Source: a phage
Length of the DNA: 64,000 bases
Reading direction: 5' to 3' (one strand)
Sequence record: PZ019084.1
Shown: in pieces, positions 25,539 to 43,183 of the stretch
Layout of the letters: each line of letters starts with the position of its first letter
Position numbering within the stretch: position 1 is the stretch's first letter
Notes under the pieces: model-generated
Databases searched by the model: none
The model's input: the letters and a program-made list of their open reading frames with translations, nothing else
What the model was told of the DNA's origin: nothing
Made by a program: the position numbers and the translations under genes

Positions 25539-25592
25539 TCCTCATGTTATGTCAGTAAGATTACTATAACACAACACGATGGACTTGTAAAC
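25539..25592 (-). promoter_or_regulatory. early promoter/leader cassette, copy 1 of a 54-bp repeat
   Basis: Minus strand has GTTTAC (25592-25587), 18 nt, TATAGT (25568-25563), then a leader with a GAGGA SD. It matches 41539-41592 at 53 of 54 positions. Confidence 0.65.
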
Positions 25593-27649
25593 TACATCTT
25601 GAACTTTTTAGACATTCCGTTAATGTTAACCAAAGAAGCTAAGATTTGAGAAACTTCGTTTTCCTCTTCTTTTGATTCTTCTACAAGGAATTGATTAAAT
25701 CCAGCCATTGGACGAACTTCACCAGTTTCCATTAAATGGTCGCCATCATATACTGATTCTTCTAATTGTTCAGAAGGAGGAACGATTGTACCTTCGATTA
25801 GATACTTGTTATAAGCAGTTTCTTTCATAAAGTAAGTACTTACTTTATTAATCTTCAGTAAAATTCCACGTGGTAGAATAACTTCAGCTTCTGATGGAAA
25901 TCCTGATAAATGACCTGGAACGATAACTTTGATTCGCTCAGCTCCTTTAATTACCATACCCACGCTAGTTTCAGCATCTTCATTAGCATATGTAGAATGA
26001 CTACCCATATGCATTAAATCTTCAGCATCAACTGAACCTTCTCCTTCACCAGAAAATACTGCGCCGGAATCATCTAGAGCCATATAGTTTTTACCATGCT
26101 CACCGAAGATATTTGGTTTAAGCGATGTGGATACGAAGTTCTTGAAATAAAACATTTTATTTTCAATATTATGACGTAAAGTTTTAAAAGTAACTTCTTG
26201 TCCACGATAAAGCGTAGTTCCTGGAGGAAGAACTGACCCTTTGGCAAAGGCAGAATCCATTGTCTCGATGTGTTTAATAGCTCGTTCCATGTATTCTTCA
26301 CGGGTAGAATCTGGTTTACCCAAGAGGAACGAGTTCATTTCAACATATGAATCTGCACAATAATCTTCAATTACATCAGACTCAGCCTGAGTTAATCCTT
26401 TTGGAGTTACTTCAGTACTTGCATATTCATATGCCTGGGCAGCAGATTCATTAATCAATTTATAAATGCCATTCATGACAAATTGAATAATAGCTACCTT
26501 TTCGTCTGGCGTGGCTTTAGAACCTTTAACTAAATCATTAATAATTTTCTTAATAACATCAAAGCTATTAGAAATATTAATATCAGCAAGATCGCTCAAA
26601 ATTTTATCAGTTTTATAATCAAAGAATTCTTTATTCTTTAAATATTCTTGAGAACCTTGATATGTTATATCGCTCTGCAACTTGATGGATGGATCACGTA
26701 AACGTGCATGGGCTAATGCAATATGATTTCGGAAGTTTTCTAGTTCATAATCGCTAGATTTAAAACGAGAAGCACTTCTCATACCACCGATAGCTCCTTT
26801 GCTGAAGTTTGAACCAATCTGAATAACCCCAGAGTTCATTGGTCCTTCTGCTTTATATACCGGAACTTTAGATTCAAACTCTTGATATTTCTTGGCAGCG
26901 AAGCTATCACCCTGAAGTGAAGCATCGACAGTAGAATATTGAGCTTGTGCTGCTAATCGACGACTAATTTTAGTTTTCTGAATAACAGCTTGATCCGTGC
27001 GCTTATCATTTTCTAAAGCAATAGAAGCAGCAACAGCAACAGCTTTAGGAACAGCATTACCTGTTTTAACATCTACATAAACATCACCAACCTTTGATTC
27101 AACTTTTGTGAATAACTCAGTTGAAATAGGAGGTACACCTGGAATGTCTTCTAAATTGGCATTTTTACGGTAAACCATAATATATGCATACTTTTTATCA
27201 TAATCCCAGATTTCCTTTAAAAGAACATATCGACCTGCTCCTTTAGTACGTACTAAACGGTCAGCAATAACTTGCATTTGACGAGCTGCGCCATTTGTTT
27301 TACTTTTTAGTACGCGGAATAGGCATGCGTCAATTTTATACTGTTTCATTGTTTGAAGAGCAGTATCAAAAACGGCATTAATGACACCAATTGGATTTCC
27401 ACCCAAGTTTTTAAGTTTAACTAATGATAGTTTCTCATTAACACCTATCATTACGATATGCATCATTTTATCGCCTGGCTTAACGTTTTTATTTGTATCA
27501 CCGCCAGAGGTGTATGTACAAAATCTAAATCCAGGAAGCACACTTTCTTCGCCGGCTTGAATAGCAAAAATTTGAGGTATTTTATGCTTAGGATTTAAGT
27601 TAACAACCGGCGCCGAAGCGCCGTCAAATAATTCTGTAATAAGTTCCAT
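25592..27649 (-). CDS. Alt-like NAD:protein ADP-ribosyltransferase paralogue, intact 685 aa
   Basis: The N-terminal 230 aa are homologous to the neighbouring alt copy. R-S-E ART signature is present: TLYRGQ, NFVSTSL, SEAEVILPRG. Confidence 0.85.
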   Translation of the reverse strand: MELITELFDGASAPVVNLNPKHKIPQIFAIQAGEESVLPGFRFCTYTSGGDTNKNVKPGDKMMHIVMIGVNEKLSLVKLKNLGGNPIGVINAVFDTALQTMKQYKIDACLFRVLKSKTNGAARQMQVIADRLVRTKGAGRYVLLKEIWDYDKKYAYIMVYRKNANLEDIPGVPPISTELFTKVESKVGDVYVDVKTGNAVPKAVAVAASIALENDKRTDQAVIQKTKISRRLAAQAQYSTVDASLQGDSFAAKKYQEFESKVPVYKAEGPMNSGVIQIGSNFSKGAIGGMRSASRFKSSDYELENFRNHIALAHARLRDPSIKLQSDITYQGSQEYLKNKEFFDYKTDKILSDLADINISNSFDVIKKIINDLVKGSKATPDEKVAIIQFVMNGIYKLINESAAQAYEYASTEVTPKGLTQAESDVIEDYCADSYVEMNSFLLGKPDSTREEYMERAIKHIETMDSAFAKGSVLPPGTTLYRGQEVTFKTLRHNIENKMFYFKNFVSTSLKPNIFGEHGKNYMALDDSGAVFSGEGEGSVDAEDLMHMGSHSTYANEDAETSVGMVIKGAERIKVIVPGHLSGFPSEAEVILPRGILLKINKVSTYFMKETAYNKYLIEGTIVPPSEQLEESVYDGDHLMETGEVRPMAGFNQFLVEESKEEENEVSQILASLVNINGMSKKFKM

Positions 27650-27652
27650 GAT

Positions 27653-29729
27653 TTATCCTTGAACGAACTTGTAAGGCATGTTTGTAATATCTATGCAAGA
27701 CGCAATAATTCCAAGAGATGATTCTACTTTTTGTTTAACATTTGATGAAACAAATGATGCAAAGTCAACTCTGTCTTCTATTTCAATATCACCTGTCATT
27801 GCAACTACTTCACCAGTTTCCATTAGACGGTCACCGTCATAAATGACTGATTCGGTGAGTTCTTCCGTAGTCATAACTTCAGCTTGAATGAGTTTTGTAT
27901 TATTAGATGTTGTTCCGTCATTATTAGAAGCATCAGTTATTTTATTAACTTTGACCAATAACTTCAGCTTCTGTTGCTATTCCGAGACTTCCTGGATATA
28001 CAACATTAACTTTATGAGCTCCATCAATTGCCCATCCTATTTGAACTTTAACGTATTCAGGATTTTCTTTATACGCTCTTATTTCGTTTGGATTAATAGT
28101 TATTCCTTCTTCATTTTTATCAACTGTTAATTCATTACGAGCTTCTGGTTCTAAAAGACCAATACCAGCATGTGTAATTCCAAAACGTCCAAAAATGATA
28201 GGAGTTAAAGAAGTAGATACAAAATTTCTGAAATAGAACACTTTATTTTTAACTAGTGCTTCGTATATAGGAGCAGTCATACTTTGAGCACGATAAACTG
28301 TAATGCCTTCTGGTATACGGTCACCATTTTCAAAAGCTGAATCTAAGTTATTTATAGCAGATTCAATTTCTTTTTCACTCATTACATCATATCGTTCTGG
28401 ATTGTAGCGTCCTAAAAGAAGATTATTGATGTCAGTATATCCTGAACCACAATACTCTCTAATGCCGCGCTTTTGTGATGGAGTATATTTAGAACCATCA
28501 CGGGCAATAGTAATATCAATCATTGGACCTGCACCAATTCCAGAAAAGCTATAAATCATTCGTTTGAGGAATTTAGTTTTTGCTGCTTTCCAGGAATTTT
28601 TAGTTATTTCTTCCCAGACTTCATCTGGCTGTCCTTTACGGGTTTTATTATGTTTATCAAGCCAAGTATCTTTATATTCTTCAAAGAATTTATTAATAGC
28701 TGCTGCATACTTCTCTAAACATTTTATTGAAGTAGTTGGTTCATTTTTAATCGCATTAAGAATTACATCTTTAATTTTTTCAGAAACTTCATTAACCTCA
28801 CTTTTTGAAAAGAATTTATAATCATAGTGAAGTTCATCTGCAGTTCCTTCGGCAATAATTTTTGCTGCCTTAGTTTTAGAAGCTAGTGAATTAATTCCAA
28901 GTTTCATTTCTTCCGCTTCGGGAATTAAAGGAGCTGTGGCAGGTTTATTGAAATTAGCTGCAGTAGATTCATACTTTTGGAATAATTCACTTTCAAATCT
29001 AGAAGATTCCAATGACTGACTTTGTGCAATTGCTCTACGGGAAATTTTAACTTTAACGATTACAGCTTGGTCAGAACGTTTATCATTTTCTTGCGCAATA
29101 GATGCTGCAATTGCCTCATTTTTAGTTACTTGAGCTCCAGTATCTTTATTGATATAAACATCACCGACCTTCGATTCAACTTTAGTAAAGAGCTCGGTGC
29201 TAATTTCCGGAACTCCTGGAATGTCTTCTAATGATACATTTTTGCGATGTATAAGAATATATGCGTACTTTTTATCGTAATCCCAGAGTTCCTTAAGAAG
29301 GACGTATCTGCCACCTGAACGACTACGGATAAGTCTATCAGCAATAACTTGAATTTGTCGAGCTTGACCAGCAGTTTTAGACTTAAGAATACGAAGCATG
29401 CAGGCATCAATTTTATACTGGCGCATCGTCTGCATTGCAACAGTAAAAACTGAATTGATATAATTAATTGGGCTTGGACCGAGACCTTTTAATTTAGCAA
29501 TTGAACCTTTAGCAGTTAATGTAAAAGGAACAATATGCATCATTTTATCGCCCATCTTTAAATCGCGATTAGTATCACCTCCAGATGTATAGGTACATAA
29601 ACGAAAGCCTGGTTGTTCAATTGCGTCATCAACATGAACTGAAAAAATTTGCGGTATTTTCTTCTTTGGATTTAAGTTTGTAATCGGAAGAGTAGTATCT
29701 TCGTCAAATAATTCTGTAATAAGTTCCAT
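27653..29729 (-). pseudogene. alt: Alt ADP-ribosyltransferase gene interrupted by a frame-shifting deletion (595-codon and 101-codon pieces)
   Basis: ART motifs VYRAQ, NFVSTSL and TEAEVI are followed by a premature TAA at 27945-27947. The remaining C-terminal tail (LVKVNKITD...YDGDRLMETGEV...) is in another frame starting at 27958. Confidence 0.8.
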
Positions 29730-29781
29730 CATAGCCTCTCTAGTGTTTATTCTATTTATAAAATTAAAGGCCCGAAGGCCT

Positions 29782-29970
29782 TTAATAATCTATTGGTAAG
29801 AGAGTACGATATATTTCAAACTTTGGTCCTTTTTCATAGGCATCAAATGTTTCTGTGAATTTATTATAAGCATATGCATCTACAAATTCGAGAATGACTT
29901 GTGATACAGAAGTAGAAACATCTCCACCTTCTTTTTGAGCAATGACAATTGTTTCTAAGTAAGCTTTCAT
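29782..29970 (-). CDS. hypothetical 62-aa protein between gene 30 and alt
   Basis: ORF overlapping the ligase stop by ATGA-type coupling. Confidence 0.6.
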   Translation of the reverse strand: MKAYLETIVIAQKEGGDVSTSVSQVILEFVDAYAYNKFTETFDAYEKGPKFEIYRTLLPIDY

Positions 29971-31430
29971 AGACCAGTTACCTCATGAAAATCACCAAAT
30001 ACATCCTCGAATGTATTAGCTTTAGTTTTATCTTCACGTAAACGAATCGCAATTGGAAGAAATAATTTAACGTAATCAGTGCGGCCATCAGATTTTAACC
30101 AACCGTTGCATTCACACTCTAGAATTTTTCCAATATAATAATTTTGGTTTTCCATAATGCGAGTACGGTCAAGTTCATGTGATTTTACACCGGCTTTATC
30201 TTTTAAGCCTGAACCAGCATTTACTTTAATTTTTCCACATTCTGATTCAAGAATAAATCCACCGGCTTTAGTAGGGTCTTTACGGTGAGGATAAATTCCT
30301 ACAATTTTTAAATCAACATCAATTACTTCTTTAAATTTATAGAGATTTTTTGAACGAGCATTTTCCCATAATCCATCGGTATTTTTGAGAATAATACCTT
30401 CAAGACCTTGGTCAATATACTTTTTATAAATTACCTTAGCTTCATCTAGGTTATTTACTACCTGGTTTTCAATTAAAATTACTTTATCATATCCTGATGT
30501 CATTTGTTCTAGTTTAGAAAAACGTACATCATATTTTAAACGAAACGCTGGAAGACCGTATATTTCTACCAACGGGACATAATCCCAGACCTGAAACTTC
30601 ATGCATTGAGCTTCTTTTTCAGAAATGGTTCCTTTTAAGGATTTATTGGCGATTCCATTAGAAGTAGTACGAGATTCCGCTACTTCGGCGAATTCTTTAG
30701 CTTTACTAATTTCAGGATAAGCATCAAAAAGAAAATCTAGGCCTTCTGGTTCCTTTTTAACTTGCTCATGGTATACCAATTCGCCATCAATTAACACACC
30801 TTCTGGATGAATCTGGCGGGCTTCAGCAGTCATTTTGATTAACTCTTCCTTAAGAAGATCTAATCCTAGATATTCATTACCAGCTCGTGATAAAAGACGA
30901 ACATCATCTAATTCATCGCCTCGGACTTCAGCAAAACACCGAGCTCCATCTGCTTTTAACTGCGCAAAGGCTGGAAACTTGATATTCTTACTAATACCTT
31001 TTTCATCATAAGAACTTGCCAGCATTTGAGGTTGTTCAGGAATTAAACCTGGCCAAACTTTGTTTGCAATAGATACTGAAGCACCGCATTCAAGGTCTCG
31101 CATCATCACTCGACGCAAAACTTCAACATCATCCTTTTTACCATCAGTGATATATCCAGTTAATTCCTCAATTGCAGCATTTCCAGTCAATTTCCGAGTA
31201 GCTAACGTGAATTCAATGAAGTCAAGCATATCGGTAATAGTCAGCATTCCAAAACTCTGGGTAGCAATACCAGGCTTAGGCCATTTCTTAATATAATACT
31301 GTAACCCACGAGAATAAGTCAGACGATATACCCGTTTAAGCAATTCATTATCTTTATTCTTTTCAAGAATTGCTTGCTTCTGCTTAGTTGATCCAATAGA
31401 TGCTATTTCATTCAGAATTTTAAGAATCAT
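29967..31430 (-). CDS. 30: ATP-dependent DNA ligase, 487 aa
   Basis: Adenylation motif AQLKADGARC (KxDG). Length matches T4 gp30. Confidence 0.95.
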   Translation of the reverse strand: MILKILNEIASIGSTKQKQAILEKNKDNELLKRVYRLTYSRGLQYYIKKWPKPGIATQSFGMLTITDMLDFIEFTLATRKLTGNAAIEELTGYITDGKKDDVEVLRRVMMRDLECGASVSIANKVWPGLIPEQPQMLASSYDEKGISKNIKFPAFAQLKADGARCFAEVRGDELDDVRLLSRAGNEYLGLDLLKEELIKMTAEARQIHPEGVLIDGELVYHEQVKKEPEGLDFLFDAYPEISKAKEFAEVAESRTTSNGIANKSLKGTISEKEAQCMKFQVWDYVPLVEIYGLPAFRLKYDVRFSKLEQMTSGYDKVILIENQVVNNLDEAKVIYKKYIDQGLEGIILKNTDGLWENARSKNLYKFKEVIDVDLKIVGIYPHRKDPTKAGGFILESECGKIKVNAGSGLKDKAGVKSHELDRTRIMENQNYYIGKILECECNGWLKSDGRTDYVKLFLPIAIRLREDKTKANTFEDVFGDFHEVTGL

Positions 31431-31696
31431 TGTTCATCCTTCAGAGTTTGATTTACAGCTCTATTATAAATCAATTCATCATTAAGCTCAGTCAAAGACC
31501 TATGATATGTAGTTCTAACTTTATTTCCTTGCATCCAGTGCTTGACGTAAATGAAACCTTGCTCTACACATTTTTTAAAAATTCGTTCGTCTTTTTGAGC
31601 TCGGAATTCTGGATTGCATCTAAAAAATTGATTTACGTGACCGTAATCACGCGTAGTATTACCTTCATTTTCATAAATAGTGTGAACGACAAACAT
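31427..31696 (-). CDS. 30.1: hypothetical protein, 89 aa
   Basis: ORF coupled to neighbours, at the T4 30.1 position. Confidence 0.7.
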   Translation of the reverse strand: MFVVHTIYENEGNTTRDYGHVNQFFRCNPEFRAQKDERIFKKCVEQGFIYVKHWMQGNKVRTTYHRSLTELNDELIYNRAVNQTLKDEQ

Positions 31697-32535
31697 TAGA
31701 ATGCTCCTTGGAAAATATTATCACCACAAGTAGGTCTATTATACAAATACTCTATTCCACCAGGTTTAATATAGTTCCATGTCTGAAACGGATGTGTCTG
31801 ATATGGATGATATAGATGATTATAAGGATTAAATCCAGGAGTTCTCCAGGTAGTGTTCCAACGAAAAGAATCGTTTTTAACCATCTTCTCAATTAAATCT
31901 TTTATAGCTTTTTCACTATCAAAACTTTCTTTATTTTCCTTCGGCGAAAAAAGCTTATTTTCTACATCATTCCATGTATAAACTCGCTGCGCAGTTTTTG
32001 GAATATTGTCACGCTCTCCTCGCGCCATCCAATAAACAGGAACACTTAATATTTCACTCGCATGGTCGCAGTGGTGAGCAAGATCGTCAATATAACAAAT
32101 CACGTTATATTTCTCTTTTGCCTTTTTAAATAACTCTTCTTTTGAAGAATCATGACCACACATCATTACTTCTGAGAAGGCACCAGGAAAAAGAGCATTC
32201 AAATTAAATTGACGATTCAGCAGAGCGTCAATAGAATCACCCAATGCTGTAACAGCTACAAAATTATAATCTTCTTTTAATTTGTTAATTACACACAGGG
32301 CATCTTTATATGGAGACAAGTAACGAATAAAATCTGATCGATTGTATTTTTCAATTAGCTTGACACCGAGTTCTTCATCGCAATTAAAGAGTTTACCTGG
32401 AGAAATAAATTTCTCATCTTGGATCATTTTTAAAATATGTTCTAACGGAAGATTATATTTCTGAGCAAAATAAGGAAGGCCTGATTGCCAGCTTAAACAT
32501 ACTCCATCAATATCAGTTAAAATAGTAGGCTTCAT
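31696..32535 (-). CDS. 30.2: HAD-superfamily phosphatase-like protein, 279 aa
   Basis: N-terminal DxDGV motif (LTDIDGVCL) and a later IDD motif. At the T4 30.2 position. Confidence 0.7.
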   Translation of the reverse strand: MKPTILTDIDGVCLSWQSGLPYFAQKYNLPLEHILKMIQDEKFISPGKLFNCDEELGVKLIEKYNRSDFIRYLSPYKDALCVINKLKEDYNFVAVTALGDSIDALLNRQFNLNALFPGAFSEVMMCGHDSSKEELFKKAKEKYNVICYIDDLAHHCDHASEILSVPVYWMARGERDNIPKTAQRVYTWNDVENKLFSPKENKESFDSEKAIKDLIEKMVKNDSFRWNTTWRTPGFNPYNHLYHPYQTHPFQTWNYIKPGGIEYLYNRPTCGDNIFQGAF

Positions 32536-32996
32536 AGAGAGTCTCTTAATAGATTTAACACATCAATAAATTCAGCTTCGGTTAGTATTGTATCATCTTT
32601 TGTTAGACCACTAGCCATGCTGTGCTTCAAAACTTTTCCTTTCGAGGCTTGTAATGCATCGCGAAAGCCCTTGTTTTGGAACGCTGCTTCAAAATATGCA
32701 TTTGTGTATAATTCTTTCCACGCCGGGGAATATCTTGAAAACGGAGTTCCAAGCCAGAAGAGGGTCCCACGGTCCTGAGCTCTAGCATAAGACCTTCCAG
32801 CTTGTTGGGCGGCAAGCCCGGATAACCCAAATATACGACGTTGCTGTTCAACATTTTTCACCTTACATCCTTGGAGGAATCCTTCGAGACCTCCGAATTG
32901 AATACCATCCATGACGAAAGGCCATTGGGCGAAATTACTTAATGCGCATGATGGCCATCTAAAATTGCTTCTTATCTCTAACTCAGACATTTTCAA
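32532..32996 (-). CDS. 30.3: NADAR/YbiA (DUF1768)-like protein, 154 aa
   Basis: SNFAQWPFVMDGIQFGGLEGFLQGCK resembles the E. coli YbiA core SNFAAWPIKVDGKTWPTSEHYFQAQK. A downstream AAxxxGR block is also shared. Confidence 0.7.
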   Translation of the reverse strand: MKMSELEIRSNFRWPSCALSNFAQWPFVMDGIQFGGLEGFLQGCKVKNVEQQRRIFGLSGLAAQQAGRSYARAQDRGTLFWLGTPFSRYSPAWKELYTNAYFEAAFQNKGFRDALQASKGKVLKHSMASGLTKDDTILTEAEFIDVLNLLRDSL

Positions 32997-33189
32997 TACT
33001 TATAATTTCAACATCAGCCCAATGACCATAGCAAGGAAGACGAAATTCAACTGGCCAGTTAGGGTCCTTTTCTAATATAATAGACTGAACTTGTGGCTCT
33101 TCATATTCATCGGTATACGGACCTTTATACGTTACTTTATATGTGACCTTAATATACTGAATTCCAAAAATCTTATTAATTATATTCAT
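32983..33189 (-). CDS. 30.4: hypothetical protein, 68 aa
   Basis: ORF in the coupled operon, in synteny with T4. Confidence 0.6.
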   Translation of the reverse strand: MNIINKIFGIQYIKVTYKVTYKGPYTDEYEEPQVQSIILEKDPNWPVEFRLPCYGHWADVEIISIENV

Positions 33190-34595: not shown

Positions 34596-34626
34596 ATAAA
34601 AAAAAAAGGACTCCCGAAGGAGTCCT
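34596..34626 (-). terminator. strong rho-independent terminator after the small basic ORF
   Basis: AGGACTCC-cgaa-GGAGTCCT 8-bp stem, followed on the minus strand by a run of about 11 U. Confidence 0.8.
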
Positions 34627-34630
34627 CAAC

Positions 34631-38937: not shown

Positions 38938-38938
<1 letters not shown>
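38741..38938 (-). CDS. hypothetical protein, 65 aa
   Basis: ORF coupled to the pseT stop. Confidence 0.55.

Positions 38939-40163
<1,225 letters not shown>

Positions 40164-41595: not shown

Positions 41596-43183
<1,588 letters not shown>

Follow-up and report, generated by a model that had tools for sequence, protein, structure and literature searches.

The 64,000-nucleotide stretch of phage DNA analysed here (sequence record PZ019084.1; hereafter, the window) carries, in two adjoining minus-strand genes, a protein of the NADAR family (gene 30.3) and a phosphatase of the HAD superfamily (gene 30.2). We consider it highly probable that gene 30.3 is adfN, the gene for an enzyme that counteracts the DarT1 toxin, and that gene 30.2, which follows it, encodes an independent HAD phosphatase and not an obligatory partner of AdfN. 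The feature is not new, its gene, fold, activity and phenotype having been published between 2023 and 2025. What is observed for the present allele is its fold, its catalytic residues and how nearly identical it is to the T4 protein; its chemistry and phenotype are those that would be expected by analogy with the T4 protein.

In this reading, the host toxin DarT1, part of the DarTG1 defence system, would place ADP-ribose on guanine in the phage DNA, and AdfN, made early in infection as a stand-alone N-glycosidase of NADAR fold, would cut the guanine–ADP-ribose bond, releasing ADP-ribose and allowing replication to proceed. The product of gene 30.2 (gp30.2) would be a HAD phosphomonoesterase that depends on Mg2+, keeps its catalytic residues and bears a helical cap, and would be dispensable both for T4 growth and for counter-defence against DarTG1, and the nearby ADP-ribosyltransferases (ARTs), DNA ligase, Pnk and Rnl1 would be ordinary syntenic T4 early genes.

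Gene 30.3 and the anti-DarT1 enzyme of T4

Cihlova et al. from the Ahel laboratory counted T4 gp30.3 among the NADARs and found that, in vitro, it hydrolyses ADP-ribose on DNA when the link is to guanine but not when it is to thymine (Toxins 2024, PMC11125620). Johannesman et al. then renamed the protein AdfN, for anti-DarT factor NADAR, and showed by deletion and complementation that it is necessary for the resistance of T4 to the DarTG1 toxin–antitoxin defence, and that ectopic AdfN alone is sufficient to rescue RB69 (Nat Commun 2025, PMC11825919). The same authors reported that AdfN strips ADP-ribose from DarT1-modified DNA, that the purified enzyme is active alone, and that full activity requires E36, K43 and the C-terminal helix, given that E36A and K43A were impaired and truncation lowered activity. 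An earlier note on this DNA, made from the letters alone, had proposed a NADAR enzyme that reverses nucleic-acid ADP-ribosylation of the DarT type. For the near-identical T4 orthologue this holds in infection as well as in vitro (PMC11125620, PMC11825919), although it is not new; the counter-defence enzyme had been correctly recognised from its sequence alone.

In the window, gene 30.3 spans 32532..32990 on the minus strand and encodes 152 aa from the ATG that is annotated as the start in T4. The open reading frame (ORF) is real and lies where the earlier note had it, but the length of 154 aa given there is reached only from a TTG at 32996. The product is identical to T4 gp30.3 at 149 of 152 residues (98%), the present allele carrying three conservative substitutions (V82T, I104F and I125M), and it matches Pfam family PF08010 (Phage_30_3) with an E-value of 1.3e-69 and 232.8 bits against a curated cut-off of 36. 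Like T4 AdfN, with which it shares its length, its position between 30.4 and 30.2 and an ATGA overlap with the latter, it retains E36, K43, H123 and the C-terminal helix. Glu36 (codon at 32883..32885, minus strand) is invariant in 64 homologues and Lys43 (codon at 32862..32864, minus strand) nearly so, and both are catalytic residues, whose replacement by alanine impairs T4 AdfN; they match the Glu and Lys by which NADARs contact ADP-ribose. His123 (codon at 32622..32624, minus strand) lies where the last beta-strand ends, directly after the model strand of residues 120–122, and is invariant in alignments A1 and A5. Codons 138–152 (32535..32579, minus strand), with the sequence EAEFIDVLNLLRDSL, encode an intact C-terminal helix, which the model places at residues 138–151. 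In RB69, gene 30.3 has only 137 codons, and this helix has been lost through a frameshift.

The NADAR family was reportedly defined by de Souza and Aravind in 2012. The core peptide on which the earlier assignment relied, SNFAQWPFVMDGIQFGGLEGFLQGCK, is present as residues 18–43 of gp30.3, and the E. coli YbiA peptide given there for comparison is found in PDB 2b3w as HMMER prints that entry. In fact, that YbiA stretch is the best PDB profile match of the gp30.3 family (E 0.057), and the structure model bears out the NADAR fold, with the catalytic residues present. PDB relatives of gp30.3 and gp30.2 were reached with profiles and not with single sequences, a direct sequence search of the PDB giving chance-level matches only for both proteins. 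The Pfam NADAR family (PF08719) did not match gp30.3 at E ≤ 0.1, and PF08010 captures it instead; PF08719 does match 9 of 54 longer gp30.3 relatives, with a best E of 1.2e-06 and four scores of 16.7–19.1 bits, below the 35.1-bit cut-off. Neither NCBIfam nor PADLOC gave a match for gp30.3 or gp30.2.

Two further observations concern the family and the gene. Five proteins of about 290 aa (P0123, P0125, P0126, P0137 and P0211) carry tandem gp30.3-type NADAR domains, the first of which lacks the C-terminal part, a layout consistent with phrog_652, a profile of 296 positions of which gp30.3 matches positions 126–272 only. Within adfN, in another frame, there is a 75-aa ORF that begins with ATG (32627-32854, minus strand); this corresponds to 30.3' of the T4 annotation, described there as “internal translation, in a different reading frame”.

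With AdfN, T-even phages can replicate in bacteria that carry DarTG1, which makes the enzyme relevant to host range and to the choice of therapeutic phages. To this the window contributes one more intact adfN allele.

Gene 30.2 as a predicted capped HAD phosphatase

The neighbouring ORF of 279 aa is present on the minus strand at 31696..32535, and the claim that it encodes a HAD phosphatase is borne out by its conserved motifs, by its AlphaFold2 (AF2) model and by its top structural and profile matches. All four HAD catalytic motifs (DxD, S/T, K and DD) are present, including the Asp+2 that marks phosphatases. The motifs named in the earlier note are found as DIDGV from residue 8 and YIDD from residue 148. 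Motif I (D8-I-D10; 32506..32514, minus strand) supplies the nucleophilic Asp and the Asp+2 general acid/base, and motif IV (D150-D151; 32083..32088, minus strand) supplies Mg2+ ligands. We found 100 homologues of gp30.2, and the 35 that were aligned share an invariant D8, D10, K132, D150 and D151 and a nearly invariant T96. The protein has the Rossmannoid HAD fold; its AF2 model is confident for residues 1–200, where a helical cap follows motif I as an insertion, and disordered over the last 80 or so residues.

The family to which gp30.2 belongs, phrog_420 (8.8e-93), has no assigned function, and no Pfam family matches gp30.2 itself, PF06941 (NT5C) included. Its top structural and profile matches are nonetheless the NT5C 5'(3')-deoxyribonucleotidases, at 14–20% identity, and 7 of the 35 homologues match PF06941 weakly (best 1.2e-4). 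The capped HAD architecture predicted by the model is typical of enzymes with small-molecule, nucleotide-like substrates. Taken together, we class gp30.2 as a predicted capped HAD phosphomonoesterase, probably of nucleotidase-like character, and do not assign it to NT5C. One could also think of it as a 3'-phosphatase that heals nucleic-acid ends, as the HAD domain of T4 Pnk does, in the service of the adjacent DNA ligase (gene 30). The position next to the ligase gene suits this idea, but the cap and the NT5C matches point towards small substrates, and we regard it as very unlikely. Literature searches on gp30.2 and on NADAR combined with nucleotidase returned nothing relevant. In any case, gene 30.2 is a conserved, motif-intact predicted phosphatase present in approximately 1,400 sequenced phage genomes.

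Prediction gives the tail of gp30.2 (residues ~200–279; 31696-31935, minus strand) as disordered; Pro, Trp and Tyr are abundant in it, and it is highly variable among phages. Many homologues, of about 200 aa, are wholly without it, and the tails found in the family end in recurring alternative short motifs, namely GIEYLxxQPT, LRAYY and LLNKVxANDS. The tail could be a docking peptide.

Whether genes 30.2 and 30.3 act together

Several points weigh against the reading of gene 30.3 as adfN followed by an independent gene 30.2. T4 AdfN is fully effective only in T-even infection and fails to neutralise DarT1 in uninfected E. coli, and its authors postulate an unknown phage factor (PMC11825919). 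The present allele is known from sequence and differs from T4 AdfN at the three positions given above, of which I125M is two residues after H123. Finally, the conserved overlap of the two genes, together with a bacterial family in which NADAR and NT5C domains are fused, may argue for some functional link between 30.3 and 30.2.

Such a link could take the form of a two-step module, in which AdfN frees ADP-ribose, or acts on ADP-ribosylated nucleotides, and the phosphatase removes a phosphomonoester downstream, for example from AMP or ribose-5-phosphate after Nudix cleavage, or from ADP-ribosylated dGMP. Within such a module, gp30.2 may even be the potentiating T-even factor that was postulated for AdfN. 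The ATGA at 32532..32535 (minus strand), read directly from the sequence, joins the two genes, the start of 30.2 overlapping the stop of 30.3, an arrangement typical of translational coupling; T4 and a relative with 58% identity (L002) have the same 4-nt overlap. In a 52%-identical relative (L005, 3643-5286), the NADAR gene encodes 125 aa, being shorter at the N-terminus, and two ORFs of 135 and 72 aa precede the gp30.2 homologue; ATGA coupling is therefore not universal even within T4-like synteny. More broadly, a gp30.2-type HAD gene lies near the NADAR gene in 24 of 85 gp30.3-type NADAR loci, in most of them directly after it or no more than 2 kb downstream on the same strand and in one (L069) upstream, and the genus distributions of the two proteins are almost identical (1511 phage records for gp30.3 and 1440 for gp30.2). 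The 24 loci mostly have close or 160–180 kb T4-type matches. An intact 30.2 is also present in RB69, the phage that ectopic AdfN rescues. Against this, co-distribution inside one virus family may be plain inherited synteny, and most phages that have a gp30.3-type NADAR but are not T4-like have no gp30.2-type gene within 6 kb. In L004, which has the most divergent stand-alone homologue, the 206-aa gene upstream of it was also considered as a gp30.2-type HAD and was ruled out (hhalign probability 0.2%).

The fusion proteins offer the two-step module further backing. Two multidomain gp30.3 relatives have a PF06941 NT5C domain C-terminal to their NADAR domain, and a search with one of them, P0133, found 2,047 proteins at E ≤ 1e-5, with both domains in all 120 of the 120 best clusters. 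Their named sources are Prevotella, Prevotellaceae and Bacteroidaceae, on contigs of up to 2.6 Mb; examples on Bacteroidales metagenome contigs are the genes at L006 5001-5993, L088 6001-6984 and L092 1882-3024. The NADAR half is of the gp30.3 type (PF08010; hhalign E 1.3e-43), with the last-strand His retained, and catalytic residues are kept in both domains, the NADAR E, K and H being conserved. One member, P0140, has degenerate HAD motifs I and IV. The resemblance of the HAD half to gp30.2 itself is distant, however, as hhalign relates the two over the N-terminal third only (E 1.8e-5, probability 78%). At several of the loci examined, the neighbours of the fusion genes include ADP-ribosylglycohydrolase (ARH), SIR2, RelA/SpoT, vWA, RtcB, a second NADAR, LMW-PTP and a TIR-like gene, and the ARH and SIR2 genes in particular speak for the module; the loci L092–L094 have no ARH, SIR2, RelA/SpoT, vWA, RtcB or second NADAR alongside. 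These neighbourhoods resemble the ARG-phosphatase systems of Iyer et al. 2022, who proposed that the phosphatases of those systems process released ADP-ribose, a prediction that fits a phosphatase acting after AdfN.

Direct evidence on this question comes from a published T4 transposon-sequencing dataset (HIDEN-SEQ; bioRxiv 10.1101/2025.11.20.689424, supplementary Data S6), which we re-read here. Under DarTG1, only 30.3 and 30.4 were significant genome-wide, with log2 fold changes (log2FC) of −7.25 and −1.79 (adjusted p 0.014 for the latter), both genes being depleted, and adfN was dispensable without DarTG1. Gene 30.2 was unaffected (log2FC −0.12, p 0.61, adjusted p 1.0; 71 sites, mean 271.5 vs 249.8), so gp30.2 is not an obligatory AdfN cofactor. 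Furthermore, 30.2 was non-essential in the T4 library, in which 72 of 72 sites were hit, and neither the RnlAB comparison nor that of M9 with LB showed an effect for it. The simplest reading of the depletion of 30.4 is partial polarity or translational coupling with adfN, because the stop of 30.4 (68 aa; 32983-33189, minus strand) overlaps the adfN start by 8 nt. The transposon is not strongly polar, however, since 30.2 and 30.1 lie upstream of the essential ligase and yet tolerate insertions.

An obligatory role for gp30.2 as the T-even potentiator of AdfN, which we favoured at first because of the ATGA overlap, the co-distribution and the fusions, was rejected, since 30.2 is unaffected under DarTG1 and in M9. 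The screen also counts against the two-step module in general, as do the activity of purified AdfN alone in vitro and the rescue of RB69 by ectopic AdfN alone, and we consider such a module unlikely. The same low standing applies to the variant in which AdfN heads an ADP-ribose clean-up and gp30.2 is its second enzyme, either non-essential or redundant, as the split-gene counterpart of the NADAR–NT5C fusions that abound in gut Bacteroidales: there, gp30.2 would dephosphorylate a nucleotide that is ADP-ribosylated or derived from ADP-ribose, and host phosphatases or the level of DarT1 would mask it in screens. Even so, the Bacteroidales fusion family, a lead raised here, provides one concrete hypothesis for gene 30.2.

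The surrounding early genes and comparison with known systems

Judged by its sequence, the source of the window is a Tequatrovirus, that is, a T4-like phage. The 1.8 kb around 30.2 and 30.3 matches many genomes of Escherichia and Shigella phages at 97–98% identity (97.8% vs Tequatrovirus), and the genes are ordered as in T4: 54, two alt-like genes, alt.1, 30, 30.1, 30.2, 30.3 and 30.4 onward. The neighbourhood is as the earlier note described it, with two Alt-like ARTs of 685 aa (25592-27649, minus strand; PF03496, 7.2e-20) and 595 aa (27945-29732, minus strand; PF03496, 5.4e-29), DNA ligase (gene 30; 29967-31430), Pnk (38938-39846) and Rnl1 (41596-42756) all located in the window. A scan for promoters and terminators gave a site count no higher than in shuffled sequence; upstream of the 30.8–30.3 block there is a strong hairpin resembling an intrinsic terminator on the coding strand (GAGGACTCCTTCGGGAGTCCTT then T8; 34606-34627, minus strand), to be read with the scan as a whole, which did no better than shuffled sequence.

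The proposal that the HAD protein, ligase, Pnk, Rnl1 and the ARTs form a single ADP-ribose-reversal toolkit is not supported, only 30.3 and 30.4 being depleted under DarTG1. The idea that ARTs, ligase, Pnk and Rnl1 act with AdfN is unsupported by the evidence we found; they belong to the usual syntenic set of T4 early genes, and each has an established role of its own. In the transposon data, pseT is outside the two significant genes, and ligase (in the DarTG1 comparison) and rnlA (in the RnlAB comparison) cannot be scored because they have almost no insertions. That NADAR genes lie near ARTs among the early genes of T4-like phages had been noted in 2022 (PMC9503650).

The two ART genes, only 3–7 kb away, do suggest another possibility, namely that AdfN mainly erases ADP-ribosylation by the phage's own Alt and Mod or, as Iyer et al. 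2022 would favour with soluble ADP-ribose derivatives as the substrates of phage NADARs, that it degrades soluble immune signals derived from ADP-ribose instead of acting against DarT. We find this extremely improbable, given that genetics and biochemistry tie T4 AdfN directly to DarT1-modified DNA, that adfN can be lost when DarTG1 is absent, and that alt insertions show no significant interaction under DarTG1 (log2FC −0.01). Alt makes arginine-linked ADP-ribose. NADAR activity, by comparison, is known on guanine N-glycosidic ADP-ribose and not on the arginine linkage (PMC11125620). Further AdfN substrates besides guanine-ADP-ribosylated DNA are possible, with anti-DarT1 activity still the reading that we prefer.

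Compared with known systems, the window differs from T4 itself in its Alt complement, since T4 has a single alt and, left over from an old duplication, the short alt.-1 and alt.-2, whereas the present phage has two full-length Alt-like genes. In contrast to the DarT1-associated NADAR antitoxins (DarG1; the Geobacter lovleyi NADAR, PDB 8bat), gp30.3 has no N-terminal extension and no adjacent DarT gene, and its last strand carries His where theirs carries Asp. This agrees with the published rule for the last-strand residue, which is His in the gp30.3 subfamily, Glu in YbiA and Asp in DarT1-linked NADARs (PMC11125620). E. coli YbiA (PDB 2b3w), with its Glu, and the Phytophthora NADAR (PDB 8bau) are only 15–20% identical to gp30.3, and proteins of the YbiA type have been tied to the hydrolysis of riboflavin intermediates and to swarming (PMC11125620). 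For its part, gp30.2 shares with the NT5C 5'(3')-deoxyribonucleotidases (cdN and mdN, PDB 2jao, 2i7d and 6g2n; the Staphylococcus epidermidis protein, PDB 3bwv) the HAD core, a DxDGV motif I and, judging by its model, what appears to be a helical C1 cap, and it further has the disordered Pro/Trp/Tyr-rich tail of about 80 aa. Finally, the uncharacterised P0133 family (~320–380 aa) has its domains in the order NADAR–HAD, the same as the T4 gene order of 30.3 then 30.2, but its members are single polypeptides encoded on bacterial chromosomes, several of them next to ARH, SIR2, RelA/SpoT and vWA genes.
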